A stretch of DNA of 42,682 nucleotides from Acidobacteriota bacterium (GTDB lineage: Bacteria; Acidobacteriota; Aminicenantia; UBA2199): the NCBI GenBank assembly GCA_028749105.1, contig JAQUQF010000001.1, forward strand, positions 1-42,682, in the 5' to 3' direction. The number at the start of each line of letters is the position of its first letter. Position 1 is the stretch's first letter. Both the position numbers and the translations under genes were made by a program. Of this stretch, positions 2,657 through 32,152 are shown piece by piece. The notes under the pieces are model-generated. The model did no database searches. It had not been told where the DNA came from and saw only the letters and a list, made by a program, of their open reading frames with translations.

Positions 2657-2979
2657 AACTCCCTCTGGACCTTACGCCAGTAAAAAACGGTCGCTGGTTT
2701 CCGATCGCCGCGGGGCCCACCATTCCAGATGCGCGCAATCCGCTCTGGACTGGCACTTGGTCCGGCGTAATGGCGAAGGTAAAGCTCAGCTATTCTGAGC
2801 GCGTGGTGGGGCACTAGCGCCGCGTGATGGGTGTATTGGGTGCCATAGATCCGATTGACATCCAGCACTACCGCCTTATGGATCTGCATGACCCCCAGGG
2901 CCCGGCCCTGATCGCCTACCGCGGCCGGGTTATTCCCCGACTCGACGATGATCATCGCCGCCAACAGTTGCGCCATCAC
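2641..2979 (-). CDS. Lytic transglycosylase / lysozyme-like (SLT, GH23-type) domain protein, 112 aa
   Basis: Catalytic-Glu motif IIVESGNNPAAVGDQGRALGVMQI plus downstream IARIWNGGP. GGGGGTGG Shine-Dalgarno before the GTG/ATG start at 2979/2976. Confidence 0.85.
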   Translation of the reverse strand: MMAQLLAAMIIVESGNNPAAVGDQGRALGVMQIHKAVVLDVNRIYGTQYTHHAALVPHHALRIAELYLRHYAGPSASPERIARIWNGGPRGDRKPATVFYWRKVQRELCRNR

Positions 2980-3206
2980 TTTCCACCCCCATCAGGCACA
3001 GGGAAAAAAAAGACGCCCCAGTTGCGCCGAACAGCGGCAGCTAGGACGCATGAACCATCAGCGGCCAGGTAACGGTTACCGGCCCAGGCAAGGACTTCTT
3101 GAGGCTGGCCAGGGCGGCCAGGATGCTGCTTAACGAGGATTGATTGCGGAAGATTTCCGCGATCAAAGAAAGCGGCGACGACTGAACTCAGCGGCCCCTT
3201 TGACAT
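2976..3206 (-). CDS. Hypothetical small protein (weak)
   Basis: ATG at 3206 (the track start at 3218 is TTG). Its stop overlaps the SLT start. No recognisable motif. Confidence 0.3.
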   Translation of the reverse strand: MSKGPLSSVVAAFFDRGNLPQSILVKQHPGRPGQPQEVLAWAGNRYLAADGSCVLAAAVRRNWGVFFFPVPDGGGK

Positions 3207-3216
3207 CACACCACCC

Positions 3217-3263
3217 AATCAACATCAGTAGGTAAAAGGATTCCCTACCGTAAGTGGTTGATT
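3217..3263 (-). other. Nested stem-loop in the leader just upstream of the 3206 start
   Basis: Outer arms AATCAAC (3217-3223) / GTTGATT (3257-3263). Inner arms GTAGG (3228-3232) / CCTAC (3244-3248). Confidence 0.5.
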
Positions 3264-3406: not shown

Positions 3407-4000
3407 TTATTTTAGCCGAAAGATTCTATCGGAAAATCTAGCTCGTATCGAAGAAACTATCTGATCGTCCGAACCGTAGGTGGCCAACAAAAACATTGGA
3501 TCCAATTCCTTATATTCAGCGCCTCCAGCAACTCTACTGAAGTAAGCAAACCGGATTTGGATGGCGACGGCATGATTCGATTTCAATACAGTTGGCCATA
3601 CCATCATAAAGGGAAATATAGATTTTGCTGCATCTTGTGATGTAGGGAAAAGGTGGAATCCATGCCGCAATAACTCATCCCTTATTGCTACCCTGATCTT
3701 TATGGCAACATCGGGCTCGGATCCTTCCTCCAATTCCGTGACATATGCATACTGCGGTTGCTGATTCAATCCTGGAATCAACGGCGCCAAGGCCGGGCTC
3801 GGACTCGCCGGAGCGGGCGGCGCCATCTCCGGCACGGCATCGCTTTCCCAGAAATTAGAGGTGGCGTTGGTCGGCATAGACTCCAGCTCAAAACCTGGCG
3901 GTAGTTCTGCCGATTTAAAACCCGGCGGCAGCCTGGGATCAGCGGCAAAGGCCACCACTACAAGTCCACAACAAAGGCAAATCAGGAGCATTGGTTTCAT
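3407..4000 (-). CDS. Secreted (Sec signal peptide) protein, 197 aa, with an N-terminal LPPGFKSAELPPGFELES motif shared with the giant protein
   Basis: ATG at 4000 in an ATGA overlap with 3997..4179. MKPMLLICLCCGLVVVAFA|ADP has an AxA cleavage site. The body of the gene is visibly lower in GC than its neighbours. Confidence 0.8.
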   Translation of the reverse strand: MKPMLLICLCCGLVVVAFAADPRLPPGFKSAELPPGFELESMPTNATSNFWESDAVPEMAPPAPASPSPALAPLIPGLNQQPQYAYVTELEEGSEPDVAIKIRVAIRDELLRHGFHLFPTSQDAAKSIFPFMMVWPTVLKSNHAVAIQIRFAYFSRVAGGAEYKELDPMFLLATYGSDDQIVSSIRARFSDRIFRLK

Positions 4001-4179
4001 AACTCCCCCCGTTGCCGGGCCCATCGGATCTTGGCGGCCCTAATCGCCGCCCGGCGTTTTCTCGCTCCTCGGCCGGCGTGGCCGCCAATCTTCCCCCAGG
4101 CGACTGCGGCGGCGTGGGTAATGATAGCGGTCTCAATCACCGTCCCGCACTTTGGGCAGATAACTTTTCCGCTGTTCAT
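3997..4179 (-). CDS. Small basic protein with a CxxC knuckle, 60 aa
   Basis: ATG at 4179 preceded by AAAGGAGGAAGA. MNSGKVICPKCGTV... with the tail GRGARKRRAAIRAAKIRWARQ. Confidence 0.6.
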   Translation of the reverse strand: MNSGKVICPKCGTVIETAIITHAAAVAWGKIGGHAGRGARKRRAAIRAAKIRWARQRGEL

Positions 4180-22841: not shown

Positions 22842-23147
22842 CTACCCGCCTTTTCTACCAAGTGTTTCGGTGGCCACTACGGCCACCACCGCAACGATGA
22901 GAACAATCTTACCGACCGCCGCCGACCAAGGTTCAGCGTATGCTATCTCACCAAGCATACCATCCCTCATCCCCCAAAAACTGCAGGTCTGTCTGCTCGC
23001 CACCACCGTCTGCCCCAAAGCCCACAGCAGCAAAGACCATACGCTAATACGCCAAGTGAGATGCGGCCTGTCAAACCACACCCCGGCGGCAACAGCCAAG
23101 CCGCACCAAGATAGAGAAATAAGTCCTATTGCTGCAATTTCCACCAA
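22842..23147 (-). CDS. Membrane protein, about 3 TM, 101 aa; start uncertain (TTG)
   Basis: Hydrophobic segments IAAIGLISLSWCGLAVAAGVW, ISVWSLLLWALGQTVV and KIVLIVAVVAVVA. Lower GC than the surroundings. Confidence 0.45.
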   Translation of the reverse strand: MVEIAAIGLISLSWCGLAVAAGVWFDRPHLTWRISVWSLLLWALGQTVVASRQTCSFWGMRDGMLGEIAYAEPWSAAVGKIVLIVAVVAVVATETLGRKGG

Positions 23148-23740
23148 ATGTCATCCTCGACTTCAAAGCTTTTGAACATCTGCCGCACCGCCTGCACAAC
23201 CCCCGCGTGGCACGGCAGCGTTGAGAAGTCATGGCCGCAAATCATCCCGCCGCGCTTGATGAGGCGCTTGGCCTGCCGGATGTCGTGCAGCACGGTCTCG
23301 TAGTCGTGCCCGCCGTCAATGAAAATGAAGTCAAACTGCCGCGCCATCAGCATCGGCAGCACCACGTCCGACCGCCCGCGCATGGGCACAACGACGTTTG
23401 CCAGCCCCGCCCGGCTGACCAGCCGCCAGAACACGCGGAAGATGTCCCGGTGCGCTGACGCCGCCGCGTTATGGTCGTCGCCTTCCCCGCGCCACCAGTC
23501 AACGCACACCAGCCGCCCGTGCCCACGCACCACCGCGCCCAGGATGACCGTGGAGCAGCCGCACCACGACCCGATTTCAAGCGCGTTGAAGGTCTTTTTG
23601 CCGGCCACCGCACCCTCGGCCAGTTGCCGCAGAGTAACGGCCTGCGTTCCCCACATCTGCGCGGGCTGGATGTAGAACGGGGCCGCCAGCCGCAGTAGGC
23701 ACGGCCGATTGCGGACAAATGTTTTCACCTTACGCCACAT
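23126..23740 (-). CDS. Class I SAM-dependent methyltransferase (Methyltransf_24/CmcI-like), 204 aa
   Basis: Motif I ALEIGSWCGCST, post-I VCVDWW, and FDFIFIDGGHDYETVLHDIRQAKRLIKRGGMICGHDF. Confidence 0.8.
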   Translation of the reverse strand: MWRKVKTFVRNRPCLLRLAAPFYIQPAQMWGTQAVTLRQLAEGAVAGKKTFNALEIGSWCGCSTVILGAVVRGHGRLVCVDWWRGEGDDHNAAASAHRDIFRVFWRLVSRAGLANVVVPMRGRSDVVLPMLMARQFDFIFIDGGHDYETVLHDIRQAKRLIKRGGMICGHDFSTLPCHAGVVQAVRQMFKSFEVEDDIWWKLQQ

Positions 23741-23882
23741 TACGCCCCCCTAGTCCCACCGCAACCAATATCATCCACGCCCCCGCAGCCGCGCCCCACG
23801 CCAACAGCAGCGGCAGGGCCAGCGCCAGCACGGTTGCAGCCAGCAGGGCGCGGTAGAGGCGTTGGAAGGGGGTTTCGGTCAT
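23730..23882 (-). CDS. Small two-TM peptide, 50 aa
   Basis: ATG at 23882 in an ATGA overlap with the stop of 23879..24136. MTETPFQRLYRALLAATVLALALPLLLAWGAAAGAWMILVAVGLGG. Confidence 0.5.
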   Translation of the reverse strand: MTETPFQRLYRALLAATVLALALPLLLAWGAAAGAWMILVAVGLGGRNVA

Positions 23883-24136
23883 TTGTGCGCCTCGGCCCCG
23901 GCGGCCTTCTGGGCTTCCTTCTCCGCCTTGGCCTTCTTGTTCATAGCCGCCTGTAACTCGCTGAAGTTCTTGGCTGCCGCCACGTCCCGTGCAAAGTCTT
24001 CCGGACTGTAATAGTCCGGGCTCTGTCGGTAGGCCCGCTCGGCCTTCCACTCCCTCAACCGCGTTTCGTTGCGGAGGTTCAGCGGTCCGGCCCAGGCAGC
24101 GCCAGCCAACAAGATCAATGCGATCGTCAGTTTCAT
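23879..24136 (-). CDS. Secreted small protein, 86 aa (Sec signal peptide, Lys/Ala-rich tail)
   Basis: ATG at 24136 preceded by TAAGGAGAGACACC, where TAA is the fibre gene stop. MKLTIALILLAGAAWAGP. The longer track ORFs 23879..24292 and 23730..24179 were trimmed. Confidence 0.65.
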   Translation of the reverse strand: MKLTIALILLAGAAWAGPLNLRNETRLREWKAERAYRQSPDYYSPEDFARDVAAAKNFSELQAAMNKKAKAEKEAQKAAGAEAHK

Positions 24137-24147
24137 GGTGTCTCTCC

Positions 24148-27024
24148 TTATTCCGGCGCGCACGGCGCGGCCACGCCAAGCACGGTTACAGGGTAGTTGC
24201 TGCTGCATAACACGCGAATCAGCGTGTTGCTCGCCGACGGCTGGTTGGTCATCCAGGCTGTGCCAACGAACAGCTTGTTGCTGACGGCCCAAGTGTCGCG
24301 CACCTCGATCTCCGCCCGCGTCCAGGTGTCGCCCAGGTCGCGGCTCATCTCGATCTGCACGTCATTGGTCGGCACGTCATTGTTGCCGACGTGTATCAGC
24401 GCCGACGGGTAGGCATACCCCGGCACAAACGGCAGGATAGTGTTGGTGGCGGTGAGGGTCGTGGACATAAGAGGGTCCTCAAGATACCGATAACTTTTCC
24501 CATTTCCATCATAGCCGCCAATCGCGTATAGATAATTGCTATGCCCAACTAGGATGGCACGATGGAGAGTGGTTGCTGTCCCGTCTATTTCCGTCCAAGA
24601 CGTTCCATAATTCGTTGATACATAAAAATTTGTTGCGGCGGTTTTGTAGGCATAAACAGTGTCGCCCACGCCCGCACACCCCATATACTGATTCTGCCCA
24701 AATGGTGTATCCCCCTTGTCTGTATAACTTGCACCATCAAACGAATAGGTCTTATCCGACAAGAAGATCAGAATACGGTCGCCTGAACCACCGGAAACCT
24801 TGGCAGCCCTCTGCGCGCCCCACATCACGGCTGGCAATCCGTCAATTTGTTCCCATACAGCCCCATCAAAACGATATACATTGGTTTGAGGCGACCCATC
24901 CCCAACGCTACCACCAAACGAATACAGATATTGCCCAAGAGCAGCACAGGATGGCATATATCTAGCAGCCGGCAATCCCTCGACTTCTTCCCAGGTAGCT
25001 GCATTCCACCTGAAAACGTTTGTCCGGGCCGGACCCCAGGGCACGCCGCCGCCGACCACATAAAAGCGATTACTATAAACTCCAAATCCATGATAGTTTG
25101 TCGGCGCCCCGTGAATACTCGGCAAACTCACCAGGTTTGTTCCATCGTAAGTATAAAAGTTTGAAGTGCCGTCGCTGTGTAAATAAAACGTGTTAGAAAT
25201 TACTCCGCCTATCCACTCGGAAGCACCAACCTCGGCCAATGTTTCCCAACCTTGCTGCAAAAAGTTTTTGTATCCCGGATCAGCCCACGTCGCATTCGTG
25301 CTCATCCCCGCCATGATGCCGGCCTCGTCGTCAAACCAATACCCCGGCCCGTCAATCAACCCCTGGCTATAACTGGCGGCGGAGTTCCAGGCTTCATACC
25401 GCAGCGCCAGCAGGTTATCCGGTATCCACGGCGCGACCGAAAACGTGTTGCCGATCTTGCGGATTGTCGCGCCATCGCCGACGGGGACCGGCACGGCGAT
25501 CATGAGTTTGTTCGTGCCGATGCTGGCGGTCCCGCCGGTCATCTCGACTTCCAAGACGGCGTTGGTGGCGGTGTTCCACCTGTTTGTCGGCTCTTCCAGA
25601 GCGCTCACCTGGCCCTGCAGCGTGGCCACATCCCCGGTGGCGCCAGTGGCATCCGTGGCCGCTTGATCCCAGACGGACGTGCGGCCTTGGACATCCAGCA
25701 TCTCGCCCTGGAGGGTGGCCACATCCGCGGTGGCGCCAGCCGCGTCAGTGGCGGCCGTGTCCCAGACGGACGTGCGCCCCTGGACATCCAGCATCTCGCC
25801 CTGCAGCGTGGCCACATCCCCGGTGGCGCCAGTGGCATCCGTGGCCGCTTGATCCCAGACGGACGTGCGCCCCTGGACATCCAGCATCTCGCCCTGCAGG
25901 GTGGCCACATCCCCGGTGGCTGACGCCGCATCTGCGGCCGCCTGGTTCCACGTGGAGGTGCCGGCTTCGACGGCCGCCACTCGGCCGGTCGCGTCTATCC
26001 CGTCCGCGCTGGCCTGGTTCCAAAGGCTCGTCCCGGCCTCGACGTCTGCCATTCGCCCCGCCAGATCGTTGGTCCCACCTTCTACGGCTTGGAGTCTGCC
26101 TTCAAACCCGGCGTTGGTGTTCCCCTGTGCGTTGAAGAGCGATTGGAAACCGGCATTCGTGTTCCCCTGGGCGTCGAAGAGCGATTGGAAACCGGCATTC
26201 GTGTTCCCCTGGGCGTTGAATTTACTCTGGAATGTAGAGTTGGTGGATCGTTGCTGCGTAATAAAGTCATCATTGGTCCCAATGCGCAGATCATATTCGT
26301 GATTGATATTCGCCTGGTTATCGTAAAACGCCTGCCAAACCACATTGGAGTTGTTCAGGTTGTTCAGATGCGCCTGGAATCCGGCATTGGTGTTCCCCTG
26401 GGCGGTCCGGAAGGCTTCATTGGACGCTATCCTGACCTCAAACCCCGCGTTGGTGTTCCCCTGGGCGTCATGCAGCGCCTGGAACCCCGCATTCGTGTTC
26501 CCCTGGGCGTCATGGAGCGCCTGGAACCCCGCATTCGTGTTCCCCTGGGCGTCATGGAGCGCCTGGAACCCCGCGTTGGTGTTCCCCTGGGCGTCATGGA
26601 GCGCCTGGAACCCCGCGTTGGTGTTCCCCTGGGCGTCATGCAGCGCCTGGAAGCCAGCATTCGTATTTCCCTGGGCGTCATGCAGCGCCTGGAAGCCAGC
26701 ATTCGTATTTCCCTGGGCGTCATGGAGCGCCTGGAAGCCAGCGTTGGTGTTCCCCTGGAGGGCGGCGTTGTTGGTGATCTGGGCTGTGAGGTTATTGGTC
26801 GCATTCGCCAAATTCGTCTGAATAGCGCCAATAGTCCCGACCAGGTTGGTCATGTAGGATCCGGCATTCGTGCCCCCCGAGCTGCGAATGTATTTGCCAT
26901 CCGCGCCGTCGAACACGACCACTTCGCCGTCCGACACCCGGCCCTTGGTGGCCACATTCGGGTAATACTGCGCCCCAGCACTCGCCGCCAAGCCCAGAAT
27001 AATCATCGCCAAGTGCTTTTTCAT
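24148..27024 (-). CDS. Fibre/receptor-binding-like protein, 958 aa: signal-peptide-like N-terminus, 14-aa and 31-aa repeat arrays, C-terminal Kelch-type beta-propeller
   Basis: ATG at 27024 preceded by GAGGAGGGAA. MKKHLAMIILGLAASAGAQ. VVVFDGADGKYIRSSG is a fibre-like motif. Kelch-like blades: FYVVGGG, LYSFGGS, VYAYKTA, LYAIGGYDG. Confidence 0.85.
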   Translation of the reverse strand: MKKHLAMIILGLAASAGAQYYPNVATKGRVSDGEVVVFDGADGKYIRSSGGTNAGSYMTNLVGTIGAIQTNLANATNNLTAQITNNAALQGNTNAGFQALHDAQGNTNAGFQALHDAQGNTNAGFQALHDAQGNTNAGFQALHDAQGNTNAGFQALHDAQGNTNAGFQALHDAQGNTNAGFQALHDAQGNTNAGFEVRIASNEAFRTAQGNTNAGFQAHLNNLNNSNVVWQAFYDNQANINHEYDLRIGTNDDFITQQRSTNSTFQSKFNAQGNTNAGFQSLFDAQGNTNAGFQSLFNAQGNTNAGFEGRLQAVEGGTNDLAGRMADVEAGTSLWNQASADGIDATGRVAAVEAGTSTWNQAAADAASATGDVATLQGEMLDVQGRTSVWDQAATDATGATGDVATLQGEMLDVQGRTSVWDTAATDAAGATADVATLQGEMLDVQGRTSVWDQAATDATGATGDVATLQGQVSALEEPTNRWNTATNAVLEVEMTGGTASIGTNKLMIAVPVPVGDGATIRKIGNTFSVAPWIPDNLLALRYEAWNSAASYSQGLIDGPGYWFDDEAGIMAGMSTNATWADPGYKNFLQQGWETLAEVGASEWIGGVISNTFYLHSDGTSNFYTYDGTNLVSLPSIHGAPTNYHGFGVYSNRFYVVGGGVPWGPARTNVFRWNAATWEEVEGLPAARYMPSCAALGQYLYSFGGSVGDGSPQTNVYRFDGAVWEQIDGLPAVMWGAQRAAKVSGGSGDRILIFLSDKTYSFDGASYTDKGDTPFGQNQYMGCAGVGDTVYAYKTAATNFYVSTNYGTSWTEIDGTATTLHRAILVGHSNYLYAIGGYDGNGKSYRYLEDPLMSTTLTATNTILPFVPGYAYPSALIHVGNNDVPTNDVQIEMSRDLGDTWTRAEIEVRDTWAVSNKLFVGTAWMTNQPSASNTLIRVLCSSNYPVTVLGVAAPCAPE
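25615..25986 (-). repeat. 93-nt (31-aa) coding repeats ...DVATLQGEMLDVQGRTSVWDQAATDATGATG, about 4 copies
   Basis: Unit starts at 25615, 25708, 25801 and 25894. Confidence 0.9.
26089..26757 (-). repeat. 42-nt (14-aa) coding repeats QGNTNAGFQALHDA; about 7.6 near-perfect copies at 26437-26757 plus degenerate copies down to 26089
   Basis: The unit ctgggcgtcatgSagcgcctggaaSccSgcRttYgtRttYcc repeats head-to-tail. Confidence 0.9.
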
Positions 27025-27033
27025 TTCCCTCCT

Positions 27034-27064
27034 CGATCCGCCAGATCAACCCGATCCGCCAGAT
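27034..27064 (-). promoter_or_regulatory. 13-bp direct repeat x2 (18-bp period) in the leader of the fibre gene
   Basis: cgatccgccagat at 27034-27046 and again at 27052-27064, lying between the stop at 27079 and the start at 27024. Confidence 0.5.
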
Positions 27065-27415: not shown

Positions 27416-28285
27416 CTATTTCCGGAAGGTGATTTTCCTGGCCACGCCTTGCTGGTTGATTTGCCTGTCTTCCAGGTCGCCAAGGATCTTCTCCGCCTGG
27501 GCGCGCTCTTTGTCGCGCTCAATGGGGTCCAGCAGAAAGTCGGCGTGGACGGCGTGAGCCAAATACCGCTGGAAAAGCGCCGGGATGCTCACGGGCTCCC
27601 AATAGGCGGTTTCGCTGTCAGGCTGCTTGTCGGCGTTGGCGGCCAGGGCTTTGTAGCTCTCGCCAGTGGCGGCCAGGTAGCACAGATCGCCAATGGCGTA
27701 ATTGGTCGCGGCGCTCCAGGCGGTCAGGGAGATTTGAGGCGCCGGCGGCCGGAATTTTATCCAGGGCCGGGTGGGCGCGTCGTCGCTGTTGATGATCAGC
27801 GCGTCGCCATAGAATTCAACTTCCAGGATTCGGCCTTTCCCGCGGTAGATCCGCGGGTCATAGTCATACGCGCATTCCTGCAGGTCCACGGCGCTGATTT
27901 CCGTCTCGCCCGCTTGCTGATAGTCAATGGTGCGCAGAAAATCATCCCCTACTTCGGCCCACCAGGCGGTCTCGGTCTCGGGGTTCTTGGCGGTGTTGGC
28001 GCCCTGCAAGCTGATGTAATACTTCTCATCCCCGCCGGATGTCGTGTGAAACACCTCCGCGCCCAAGGCGTAAATCAGGGCACTCTCCCAGGTGGCGCGG
28101 TATTGGCGCCGCTCGACCAGCAGCACTTCCGGCCACATGTAGTATTCATAGATTTCTTCCAGGCGCTCGTTGATCCAGTCGGCTATGCGGGCTTGCTCGG
28201 CGGCGGCCACGTTCGCGCTGGCCGGGTCGTATCCGCGCTTGCGGATAATGGCTTCGTAAAGCGCTTTGGTGGTGACGGTCTTCAT
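27416..28285 (-). CDS. Putative virion protein, 289 aa, with two CBM5/12-like W..Y..GD...Y.A....P....W motifs
   Basis: GGDEKYYISLQGANTAKNPETETAWWAEV and AWSAATNYAIGDLCYLAATGESYKALAANADKQPDSETAYWEPV. Confidence 0.7.
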   Translation of the reverse strand: MKTVTTKALYEAIIRKRGYDPASANVAAAEQARIADWINERLEEIYEYYMWPEVLLVERRQYRATWESALIYALGAEVFHTTSGGDEKYYISLQGANTAKNPETETAWWAEVGDDFLRTIDYQQAGETEISAVDLQECAYDYDPRIYRGKGRILEVEFYGDALIINSDDAPTRPWIKFRPPAPQISLTAWSAATNYAIGDLCYLAATGESYKALAANADKQPDSETAYWEPVSIPALFQRYLAHAVHADFLLDPIERDKERAQAEKILGDLEDRQINQQGVARKITFRK

Positions 28286-30988: not shown

Positions 30989-32152
30989 TTATGGGTTGAT
31001 CGAGACAATCCGGAAGTAGAACCGCACTTCCCCGGCGCTGTTCTCGCTCAGCGCGTTTTCGCTGTTCGGGGTGAAGGTGAAGTCCACGGTGTCATCCGCG
31101 GTATAAACCTTCCGGCCGTAGGTGTTGTCCACCAGCGCCGTAACCGCCGTCAGACTTCCCTTGGTAACGGTCGCCGTGGCGGTCGCACCGATCAGATACC
31201 TGTTCTCGGCGCTCGGTGTCAGCGTGGCGGTGGCCGTCGCGTTGGTCGGCAGATCCACGGCTTTTGCCGTCAGCGTGGCGGTGGCCGTCGCGTTGGTCGG
31301 CAGATCCACGGCTTTTGCCGTCAGCGTGGCGGTGGCCGTCGCGTTGGTCGGCAGATCCACGGCTTTTGCCGTCAGCGTGGCGGTAACCAGCACGTTGGTT
31401 ACCCACTCCACCTCTTCCCCGGCGGCATTGGTGATCGCGGCGCCGGTAGAGTCATACCCCTTGGCCGTGTGCAGCGTGATCACGAAGGCCGGATCGTTGG
31501 TGTCGGCCACGTTGATGGTTTCCGTGTTCAGCGTCACCGCCACGGCCGGATCGTTGGTGTCGGCCACGTTGATTGCTTCCGTGTTCAGCGTCACCGCCAC
31601 GGCCGGATCGTTGGTGTCGGCCACGTTGATTGCTTCCGTGTTCAGCGTCACCGCCACGGCCGGATCGTTGGTCGCCGCCAGCATGTCAGCGTCCATGGTG
31701 ATATAGGATACCGTCACCGTCGGATCGTTGGTCTTGGCGTAGTTGATCGTCTCGGTGGTCGTGCCTTGCCAGGCGCGGCCGTATTTCTGCCAGATCTCCG
31801 TCATGTTGGAGTTCAGTTCCGTGGAGTCCAGGTAGAAATCGGCGCCCGCCGCACCGTCGCCCACCGTAACTGCCACCGAGCCGGTGGCATTGTTCCCGGC
31901 GTTGAAGGCGGTCACCAGTTCCATCGCCACCAGTTCGACCCGCTGCTTGGACGTTACCGCCAGGGACGTGAGTGCCTGGGCGGTGTCAGCGTTGGTCTCC
32001 GTCAGGTCGGAATGGTCAATGGTGACCACGTGCGTAGCGCCGGCGTAGGAGCGTTCCTGGATCGTGATCGGCCGCACCGATGCTCCCCAGCCGGGGCCCG
32101 CCAGCCAGCCGACCAGCAGCGTCGCCATTAAAATTGCCGTCAGTTTCTTCAT
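30989..32152 (-). CDS. Signal-peptide repeat protein, 387 aa, located between the capsid and portal genes (decoration/surface protein candidate)
   Basis: MKKLTAILMATLLVGWLAGPGWGAS. Arrays NDPAVAVTLNTEAINVADT x3-4 and ATATLTAKAVDLPTNAT x3. Confidence 0.8.
   Translation of the reverse strand: MKKLTAILMATLLVGWLAGPGWGASVRPITIQERSYAGATHVVTIDHSDLTETNADTAQALTSLAVTSKQRVELVAMELVTAFNAGNNATGSVAVTVGDGAAGADFYLDSTELNSNMTEIWQKYGRAWQGTTTETINYAKTNDPTVTVSYITMDADMLAATNDPAVAVTLNTEAINVADTNDPAVAVTLNTEAINVADTNDPAVAVTLNTETINVADTNDPAFVITLHTAKGYDSTGAAITNAAGEEVEWVTNVLVTATLTAKAVDLPTNATATATLTAKAVDLPTNATATATLTAKAVDLPTNATATATLTPSAENRYLIGATATATVTKGSLTAVTALVDNTYGRKVYTADDTVDFTFTPNSENALSENSAGEVRFYFRIVSINP
31218..31385 (-). 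repeat. 51-nt perfect tandem repeat, 3.3 copies (17-aa units)
   Basis: gtcagcgtggcggtggccgtcgcgttggtcggcagatccacggcttttgcc, with units starting at 31218, 31269 and 31320. Confidence 0.9.
31487..31675 (-). repeat. 57-nt tandem repeat, 3.3 copies (19-aa units)
   Basis: Units start at 31487, 31544 and 31601. They are near-identical. Confidence 0.9.

Follow-up and report, generated by a model that had tools for sequence, protein, structure and literature searches.

Exchange of modular receptor-binding parts is the main route by which phages change host range, and it is usually seen as the swapping of C-terminal tips. Mosaic tail fibres and receptor-binding proteins include T4 gp37/gp38, T7 gp17, lambda Stf and the H-type fibres of P2. 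On the cellular side, the MAT fibres of Bdellovibrio bacteriovorus start with a signal peptide and a conserved domain and extend as a long fibre to a variable tip (TNF-like, C-type lectin or β-sandwich), and at least one of these tips binds glycan; what defines the superfamily is a β-rich domain of ~130 amino acids (aa), conserved and located right after the signal peptide, together with tips of the S74 or another defined type (Caulton et al. 2024, PMC10769870). Here we analyse a gene located on a 42,682-nucleotide (nt) contig of an Acidobacteriota metagenome-assembled genome (MAG), the whole contig being called the window below. It codes for a 958-aa protein, P0001, in which a Kelch propeller module is inserted between two conserved halves and does not form a C-terminal tip. 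The best single reading, to which we give about even weight, is a fibre that serves host recognition, carries a plug-in lectin head and is exported, along with a partner, through Sec. The features of the gene are as follows, in the direction of translation:

27027-27034, minus strand: Shine-Dalgarno sequence GAGGAGGG, read directly, immediately 5′ of the ATG at 27024
24148-27024, minus strand: complete coding sequence of P0001, 958 aa, comprising leader, N-terminal domain, repeat shaft, conserved flank, Kelch insert and conserved end domain
26968-27024, minus strand: leader of Sec/signal peptidase I type, MKKHLAMIILGLAASAGAQ, aa 1-19, called by heuristic criteria
26761-26967, minus strand: mature N-terminal domain, aa 20-88 (YYPNVATKG...GEVVVFDGADGKYIRSSG...)
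26441-26758, minus strand: array of 42 nt x 7.6 with 93% matches (Tandem Repeats Finder, TRF), with seven identical QGNTNAGFQALHDA units, aa 90-187
26108-26220, minus strand: second array, 42 nt x 2.7 (TRF), coding for QGNTNAGFQSLF[DN]A
25594-26058, minus strand: array of a 31-aa module, aa 323-477, with three well-preserved and two degenerate copies
25261-25512, minus strand: conserved N-flank of the slot, aa 505-588 (GDGATIRKIGNTFSVAPWIPDNLL...GLIDGPGYWFDDE...GYKN)
24469-25284, minus strand: island of low GC content at third codon positions (GC3), aa 581-852, holding the six-bladed Kelch propeller (two-boundary likelihood scan)
24151-24468, minus strand: conserved C-terminal β-rich domain, aa 853-958, family-defining, containing the Asp-box-like SRDLGDTW and ending in a PC motif

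The propeller was recognised by two Pfam families, Kelch_6 (E 9e-9, 35.5 bits with a cut-off of 25.3) and Kelch_1 (24.8 bits, cut-off 20.1), placing it in clan CL0186. An earlier note on this DNA had described a Kelch-like C-terminus of ~280 aa. The blades were indeed found, by Pfam as well as by AlphaFold2 and Foldseek, but not at the C-terminus: six of them occupy aa ~589-851, in the interior of the protein, with ~105 aa of a different, non-Kelch domain behind them. Modelled with AlphaFold2, aa 480-958 gave a confident structure over the propeller only, with predicted local distance difference test (pLDDT) values of 64-90 in blades 1-4, weaker later blades and values below 50 for the socket halves on both sides. 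The best Foldseek matches of the propeller model in the PDB were six-bladed Kelch domains (E 1e-10, target-normalised TM-score, TMt, 0.5-0.63), and phage proteins of BFVD also matched (E 1e-8 to 1e-11). At the sequence level, the closest relatives of the insert were cellular Kelch proteins, with 31-38% identity.

The propeller is also set apart by its composition. GC3 was 0.46 in aa 581-852 and 0.794 in the rest of the gene (Fisher p 3e-23), and GC at fourfold sites was 0.49 within the island compared to 0.89-0.90 outside. Along the gene, GC3 mostly ranged from 0.74 to 0.90, fell to 0.36-0.54 over the propeller and reached 0.84-0.88 in the final 100 codons. The contig mean is 0.76 +/- 0.08 (100-codon windows, n=932), and comparably low values were observed in few other genes. 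Since the drop concerns synonymous sites, it is not a by-product of amino-acid content. This profile agrees with the AT-rich blade-coding DNA proposed earlier for ~24415-25257, the island being delimited here at 24469-25284. A smaller second GC dip near 26100-26400 tracks degenerate repeats rich in Asn, Phe and Ile. Four more genes, all on the minus strand, have low whole-gene GC3 (0.50-0.58): 3407-4024, 1865-2656, 22842-23147 and 2976-3218. They may be further imported accessory genes.

We then compared P0001 with its nearest relative, P0002, a 693-aa protein carried by a 2.6-kb Logan contig (locus L002) and the sole match of a word-based search with the N-flank. In windows of 30 codons, identity was 87-90% in the flank core, 13-43% in the propeller and 43-63% in the last ~105 residues. 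A profile of the end domain run against 1.84 billion representative proteins gave 67 matches, 26 of them at E<=1e-10. The N-flank was present in every full-length match, with the motifs TFSVxxWIPxNL ... DGPGY[WL]FxD ... GYxN, and the end domain showed SxDxGTxW ... SN.L ... TN[QN]. P0001 carries both parts, bracketing the insert, and scores 139 bits with the flank profile. The slot between them holds a Laminin_G_3/ConA-like (LamG) jelly-roll domain in 16 of 23 members and a Kelch domain in two, P0001 and P0002 only. Different lectin folds thus occur between the same two conserved parts, which indicates a socket with an exchangeable lectin insert.

On the evidence of sequence, these proteins form a previously uncatalogued family of ~25 putative phage-borne, fibre-like lectin proteins. 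Their common layout is a Sec-type leader, a short conserved mature N-terminus, a lineage-specific repeat shaft, the ~80-aa flank, the lectin slot and the ~105-aa end domain. Ahead of the socket the members are unrelated to one another: the fibre-type motif GGTMSGxLDMGGNxITNxG occurs there, as do collagen-like, leucine-rich and large repeats. For a few relatives, other regions of the sequence match ‘tail fiber’ or ‘virion structural protein’ PHROGs. Against the PDB, the end-domain profile matched only the Asp-box motif (E 0.01), and the N-flank profile aligned, without significance (E 1.4), with the opening strands of 4-1BBL, a protein of the TNF family. As a lead only, this suggests that flank and end domain could form one TNF/C1q-like jelly-roll knob with the lectin in a loop. 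One further candidate locus, L006, was rejected as spurious: an unrelated 211-aa open reading frame (ORF) having only a weak stretch of 76 residues in common with P0001.

DNA was compared for four loci: the window, the short contig L002 of P0002, L004, a 40-kb contig binned with a Verrucomicrobiota MAG and carrying a LamG member, and L005, a 50.8-kb metagenome contig carrying a LamG member of 1,169 aa. The islands and slots of the four genes are:

Window (Kelch): GC3 island aa 581-852; slot 589-851; GC3 inside and outside 0.46/0.79
L002 (Kelch): GC3 island aa 328-578; slot 319-590; GC3 inside and outside 0.50/0.79
L005 (LamG): GC3 island aa 828-1067; slot ~825-1066; GC3 inside and outside 0.42/0.74
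L004 (LamG): no GC3 island; genome of lower GC

Three of the four loci thus have a low-GC3 island that coincides with the slot, edges included. As the insert of L005 is a LamG domain, the effect is not peculiar to Kelch coding. Directly 3′ to the family gene, all four loci carry a small helical protein with its own leader, which in the window is:

23879-24136, minus strand: downstream secreted helical partner, 85 aa (MKLTIALILLAGAAWA followed by mature GPLNLRNE...), with its own ribosome-binding site

On L004 the order recurs further, with a phrog_6278-type protein, the family gene, the secreted partner and a giant protein 39% identical to that of the window. L004 belongs to a distantly related phage of this kind. 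The flank profile gave no match in ~800 sampled genomes of both phyla, the two carrier MAGs excepted, which fits a mobile or phage gene. No relatives were found by tblastn of P0001 and the LamG-type P0059 in 50,697 phage records, three scans of IMG/VR gave no true relative of the family, and early scans of metagenome and genome collections with a two-sequence alignment found nothing. P0001 had no fibre match in the PDB, and no homology to a known fibre family was detected.

Since the slot holds non-homologous folds (LamG and Kelch), replacement must have taken place at least once; the insert has certainly been replaced in the history of the family, and a module swap is supported at the family level. 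In the favoured model the two conserved socket halves would anchor homologous recombination, lectin cassettes being exchanged between phages, and these cassettes would circulate in a pool of lower GC than these GC-rich phages. The horizontally swapped module put forward in the earlier note gains from the foreign composition, from the non-homologous fold in the slot of homologues and from composition change-points that fall together with the homology breakpoints; its recency found no support. The Kelch modules of P0001 and P0002 are only ~27% identical and both low in GC3, and between the window gene and L002 the synonymous sites of the socket halves are close to saturated. Each phage propeller scores better by BLAST with cellular Kelch proteins than with the other phage propeller, which may only reflect consensus-like cellular repeats. 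In a tree, the phage Kelch branches measured 2.4 and 2.1 compared to a median of 0.73 for cellular homologues (~3x longer). A single clade for both modules was not rejected (approximately unbiased, AU, test, p 0.515), so that the tree fits one or two acquisitions.

These data bear on another account, limited to the composition, to which we attach appreciable weight, clearly short of even: the low-GC3 block would be a hypervariable region and not imported DNA. There, the force raising GC3 elsewhere, be it codon selection or GC-biased repair in homologous recombination, would be ineffective and AT-biased mutation would prevail, because the sequences are too diverged to recombine or because recurrent positive selection interferes with weak selection at linked sites, known as the Hill-Robertson effect. 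Both Kelch members are low in GC3 despite flanks near synonymous saturation; had a single acquisition preceded their split, amelioration should have erased an imported GC3 signal. The threefold longer phage branches and the AU test, which leaves a single acquisition standing, point in the same direction, as does the same dip in the Kelch part of a cellular Kelch/FG-GAP gene, P0017 (Lentisphaerae MAG, L010 1982-5209, plus strand), where the Kelch half has a GC3 of 0.42-0.55 and the rest 0.7-0.8. An unusual composition may be a property of Kelch modules in genomes beyond this phage as well. The hypervariable-region account nevertheless sits poorly with a slot that holds the non-homologous LamG and Kelch folds, with sharp island edges coinciding with slot edges in three loci, and with the resemblance of the other low-GC3 genes of the contig to accessory imports. 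A diversity-generating retroelement was considered and rejected: no RVT_1 match was obtained in the whole MAG, control genomes being matched, and the island has no second copy in contig or MAG.

The N-terminus of P0001 was examined with heuristic criteria for signal peptides (a positive n-region, a hydrophobic h-region of 10-15 residues and small residues at -3/-1), which are not a trained predictor. P0001 follows the Sec/signal peptidase I pattern, with MKKH, LAMIILGLAA and SAGA before a Q. Two lysines, a 10-residue core (Kyte-Doolittle mean 2.7) and the small-residue sites ASA/AGA of MKKHLAMIILGLAASAGAQ bear out the signal-peptide-like character noticed before. No homologue of aa 1-95 was found by word-based search. 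By the same heuristic, 20 of 24 family members carry a leader, in which one or two K/R precede a strongly hydrophobic decamer and small residues. The remaining four sequences begin at the edge of a contig, with a residue other than Met, or within a repeat. Leaders are not conserved in sequence, and conservation begins right past the predicted cleavage (‘xNPP’ or ‘DGVYING’), as expected where a true signal peptide precedes a mature N-terminus that has a function. Mature N-termini (P0041-P0065, P0106 and P0108) are of two types, ‘(I/Y)xNPP...’ and ‘D(G)VYINGxxV...’, with unrelated shafts behind them.

It seems to us quite improbable that this hydrophobic N-terminus is no export signal at all, P0001 being an ordinary fibre assembled in the cytoplasm whose first ~19 residues would be cut off by a phage protease or lie buried as an element for docking or trimerisation. 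To our knowledge, known tailed-phage fibres all assemble in the cytoplasm, which speaks for such an account, and the leader call is heuristic. In the same sense, predicted signal peptides on some phage capsid proteins were suggested to be substrates of the prohead protease (Matrishin et al. 2023, PMC10367356). The leaders of the family nevertheless vary while keeping n-region charge, a core of 10-15 residues and small residues at -3/-1, unlike a conserved docking motif, and the small partner has a leader of the same type in four loci.

In the literature we met with no more than passing mentions of export signals on phage fibre-like proteins; signal peptides were mentioned, for instance, on Porphyromonas phage genes of unknown function (Matrishin et al. 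2023, PMC10367356). A more direct case is provided by gp091-gp094 of Cellulophaga phage phi10:1 (KC821618.1), which the record annotates as ‘structural protein, experimental MS/MS proteomics’ (tandem mass spectrometry), and four out of four start with signal peptides. By analogy, they are a real precedent that signal-bearing tail-end proteins can be particle-associated. Neither BLAST nor two profile hidden Markov models detected similarity between them and the family.

The repeat shaft lies between the N-terminal domain and the flank. TRF returned 42 nt x 7.6 and a second array of x 2.7, confirming the ~7.6 near-identical 42-nt units with degenerate extensions of the earlier note, and degenerate 14-aa units occur in the stretch separating the two arrays. 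The 31-aa module proposed from four 93-nt units was also found; its count of four is approximate, since the TRF core is 93 nt x 3.3 (25612-25920, 88% matches) and the protein shows three good and two degenerate copies. The seven units coding for QGNTNAGFQALHDA contain 7 variable codons, and pairwise codon differences are 80 synonymous and 0 non-synonymous. This indicates purifying selection on the shaft peptide and shows that the 42-nt array is not simply a fresh slippage product. The recombinational instability of shaft length proposed in the earlier note is a prediction drawn from these repeats. AlphaFold2 run on the single sequence of aa 1-520 gave a mean pLDDT of 44.7, drawing a long helix over aa 53-364 and leaving the 31-aa repeats undefined.

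We next consider the phage context. The window is one entire contig, the longest of a 2.17-Mb MAG of 376 contigs, with a GC content of 0.614 compared to 0.611 for the MAG, and its large genes all share one strand. Phage genes include a DnaB, an SU10-type major capsid protein (E 1e-21) and a polyvalent giant protein of 3,559 aa; terminase and SU10-type portal gave weak matches only. Upstream, the gene order is portal, a 109-aa protein, a 289-aa CBM5/12-like protein (phrog_6278), a ~104-aa protein and the 958-aa gene; downstream follow the 85-aa secreted protein, a 50-aa peptide with two transmembrane (TM) segments, a Methyltransf_24 enzyme, small membrane proteins and the lysis region. The 958-aa gene thus lies three genes past the portal, on the same strand and behind the phrog_6278-matching protein with its CBM5/12-like motif, a location in the structural/late module that is clear in the window and less so on L005. 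The genome is that of an uncultured, podophage-like virus, and the 958-aa ORF is one of its genuine late genes. Linking the phage to a host through shared 20-mers or spacers was rejected, the sole common stretch being DnaB-like. Other genes of the neighbourhood and of the exported set are:

30989-32152, minus strand: 387-aa protein with a Sec-type leader (MKKLTAILMATLLVGWLAGPGWGA), between the SU10-type capsid and portal genes
27416-28285, minus strand: 289-aa protein with a CBM5/12-like motif and a phrog_6278 match (called from both)
23730-23881, minus strand: 50-aa two-TM peptide, downstream of the secreted partner
23126-23740, minus strand: class I methyltransferase of the Methyltransf_24 family (E 3.5e-24), 3′ to the secreted partner gene
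3407-4024, minus strand: predicted exported protein, also low in GC3 (leader pattern)

The 387-aa protein had no match in Pfam or PHROG. Start and stop codons of the two-TM peptide and Methyltransf_24 genes overlap, coupling the two. A phrog_6278-type CBM5/12-like protein lies upstream of the family gene both in the window and on L004 (5937-7850, plus strand), and it is a second candidate for a glycan-binding virion protein. L004 further carries, after the secreted partner:

L004 11681-12049, plus strand: 122-aa lipoprotein (MKKSIVIIGIGLLLSGC...)

The family gene, the partner and this lipoprotein are three consecutive leader-bearing genes; the lipoprotein could be spanin-like or receptor-blocking.

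In the fibre reading, the N-terminus of P0001 would dock, the 14-aa and 31-aa repeats would act as spacers and the Kelch head would bind a surface glycan of the host. The conserved leader would direct the fibre to Sec, with maturation outside the cytoplasm together with the small co-exported partner, and addition of the fibre to particles would be a late event, taking place at lysis or in the periplasm. A putative virion-fibre role draws on the position past the portal/adaptor-like genes, on the fibre-type motifs of relatives and on the phi10:1 precedent.

The same leaders can be read in another manner, which is the main rival and to which we give fair weight, well short of even: the fibre-lectin and its partner would not belong to the virion and would be secreted into the envelope of the infected or lysogenic cell, binding its own surface or periplasmic glycan. 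Possible effects are receptor masking, exclusion of rival phages, prevention of progeny sticking to debris or altered adhesion. T5 Llp and Cor-type proteins, whose genes neighbour those for receptor binding, follow this logic. A family-wide leader with a co-secreted partner speaks for this reading, and so does the L004 block of three leader-bearing genes next to tail-like genes devoid of leaders. Moreover, the window gene adjoins a cluster of small membrane proteins and lysis genes, and other exported proteins are encoded in the window (3407-4024 and 30989-32152). MAT fibres show that a signal peptide, a fibre and a mosaic adhesive tip work on cell surfaces (PMC10769870). Several observations are nevertheless harder to accommodate. 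The position among late/structural genes is kept in two distantly related phage contigs, relatives have fibre-type motifs and tail-fibre PHROG matches, and nothing else in the window stood out as a receptor-binding protein. In addition, signal-bearing tail-end proteins were detected by MS/MS in Cellulophaga phage particles, and a shaft of ~900 aa seems excessive for a masking factor.

Several points weigh against the fibre reading itself. For the exchange part, one old, fast-diverging acquisition is possible, so that a cassette pool is not the sole explanation; the cellular gene P0017 shows its own dip, and the island is missing in the L004 gene. P0001 has no match in PHROG, INPHARED or IMG/VR. 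Neighbours of the L005 gene are nucleotide-metabolism, transposase and glycosyltransferase genes with no clear tail module, and the L004 pattern, with upstream tail-like genes lacking leaders, fits an ‘exported accessory cluster’ equally. AlphaFold2 models of flanks and shaft are of low confidence, and virion presence, trimer state and glycan binding are predictions. Finally, a Sec leader delivers a protein only to the periplasm in a diderm, and we know of no route from there to the phage particle.

A broader and doubtful extension of the fibre reading is that in this phage and in many other uncultured tailed ones the host-recognition fibres are true Sec substrates. They would leave the cytoplasm with a small secreted partner, fold in the periplasm and become attached, at lysis or outside the cytoplasm, to particles that are otherwise complete; their sugar-binding heads would be plug-in cassettes exchanged across lineages through a conserved two-part socket. 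Independently of this, three traits are unusual in modular phage recognition proteins: the two-part socket, the coincident compositional scars in three loci and the family-wide export signal with a co-secreted partner. The exchange unit is here an internal cassette held by two strongly conserved halves. The compositional scar at cassette edges in three independent loci offers a signature by which host-recognition modules of uncultured phages can be found from sequence, and the socket family is a natural system for asking whether modules share one pool. If these proteins are in virions, the site where tailed-phage particles are finished needs rethinking.

Among known systems, six-bladed Kelch domains like the P0001 insert occur in ‘virion structural proteins’ of PhiPA3, Noxifer and Phabio and in cellular Kelch-TIG surface proteins of Lentisphaerota and Verrucomicrobiota. 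These resemble P0001 in the propeller only, without the socket halves, shaft or leader arrangement. MAT fibres share with P0001 the signal peptide, long fibre and variable adhesive module and are the nearest structural analogue of a non-virion factor. Unlike P0001, they are cellular genes of a predator and are displayed on its own surface, and many end in an S74 chaperone-protease that P0001 lacks; no sequence match was found between P0001 and deposited MAT tip structures. Gp091-gp094 of phi10:1 are leader-bearing like P0001 and are, according to annotation, consecutive tail-end proteins detected by MS/MS in purified particles. They differ in host (Bacteroidota), in phage family (Assiduviridae) and in leaders with the glutamine of that phylum at the mature N-terminus. 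With mosaic tail fibres, P0001 has in common a conserved proximal part, a shaft built of repeats and a horizontally exchanged binding module; as for T7 gene 17, its gene lies in the late region beside lysis genes, and as with tail-fibre assembly genes a small accessory gene is located directly downstream. Unlike them, P0001 has a Sec-type leader and no detectable sequence relation, its downstream partner is secreted, and its exchanged module lies between two conserved halves.

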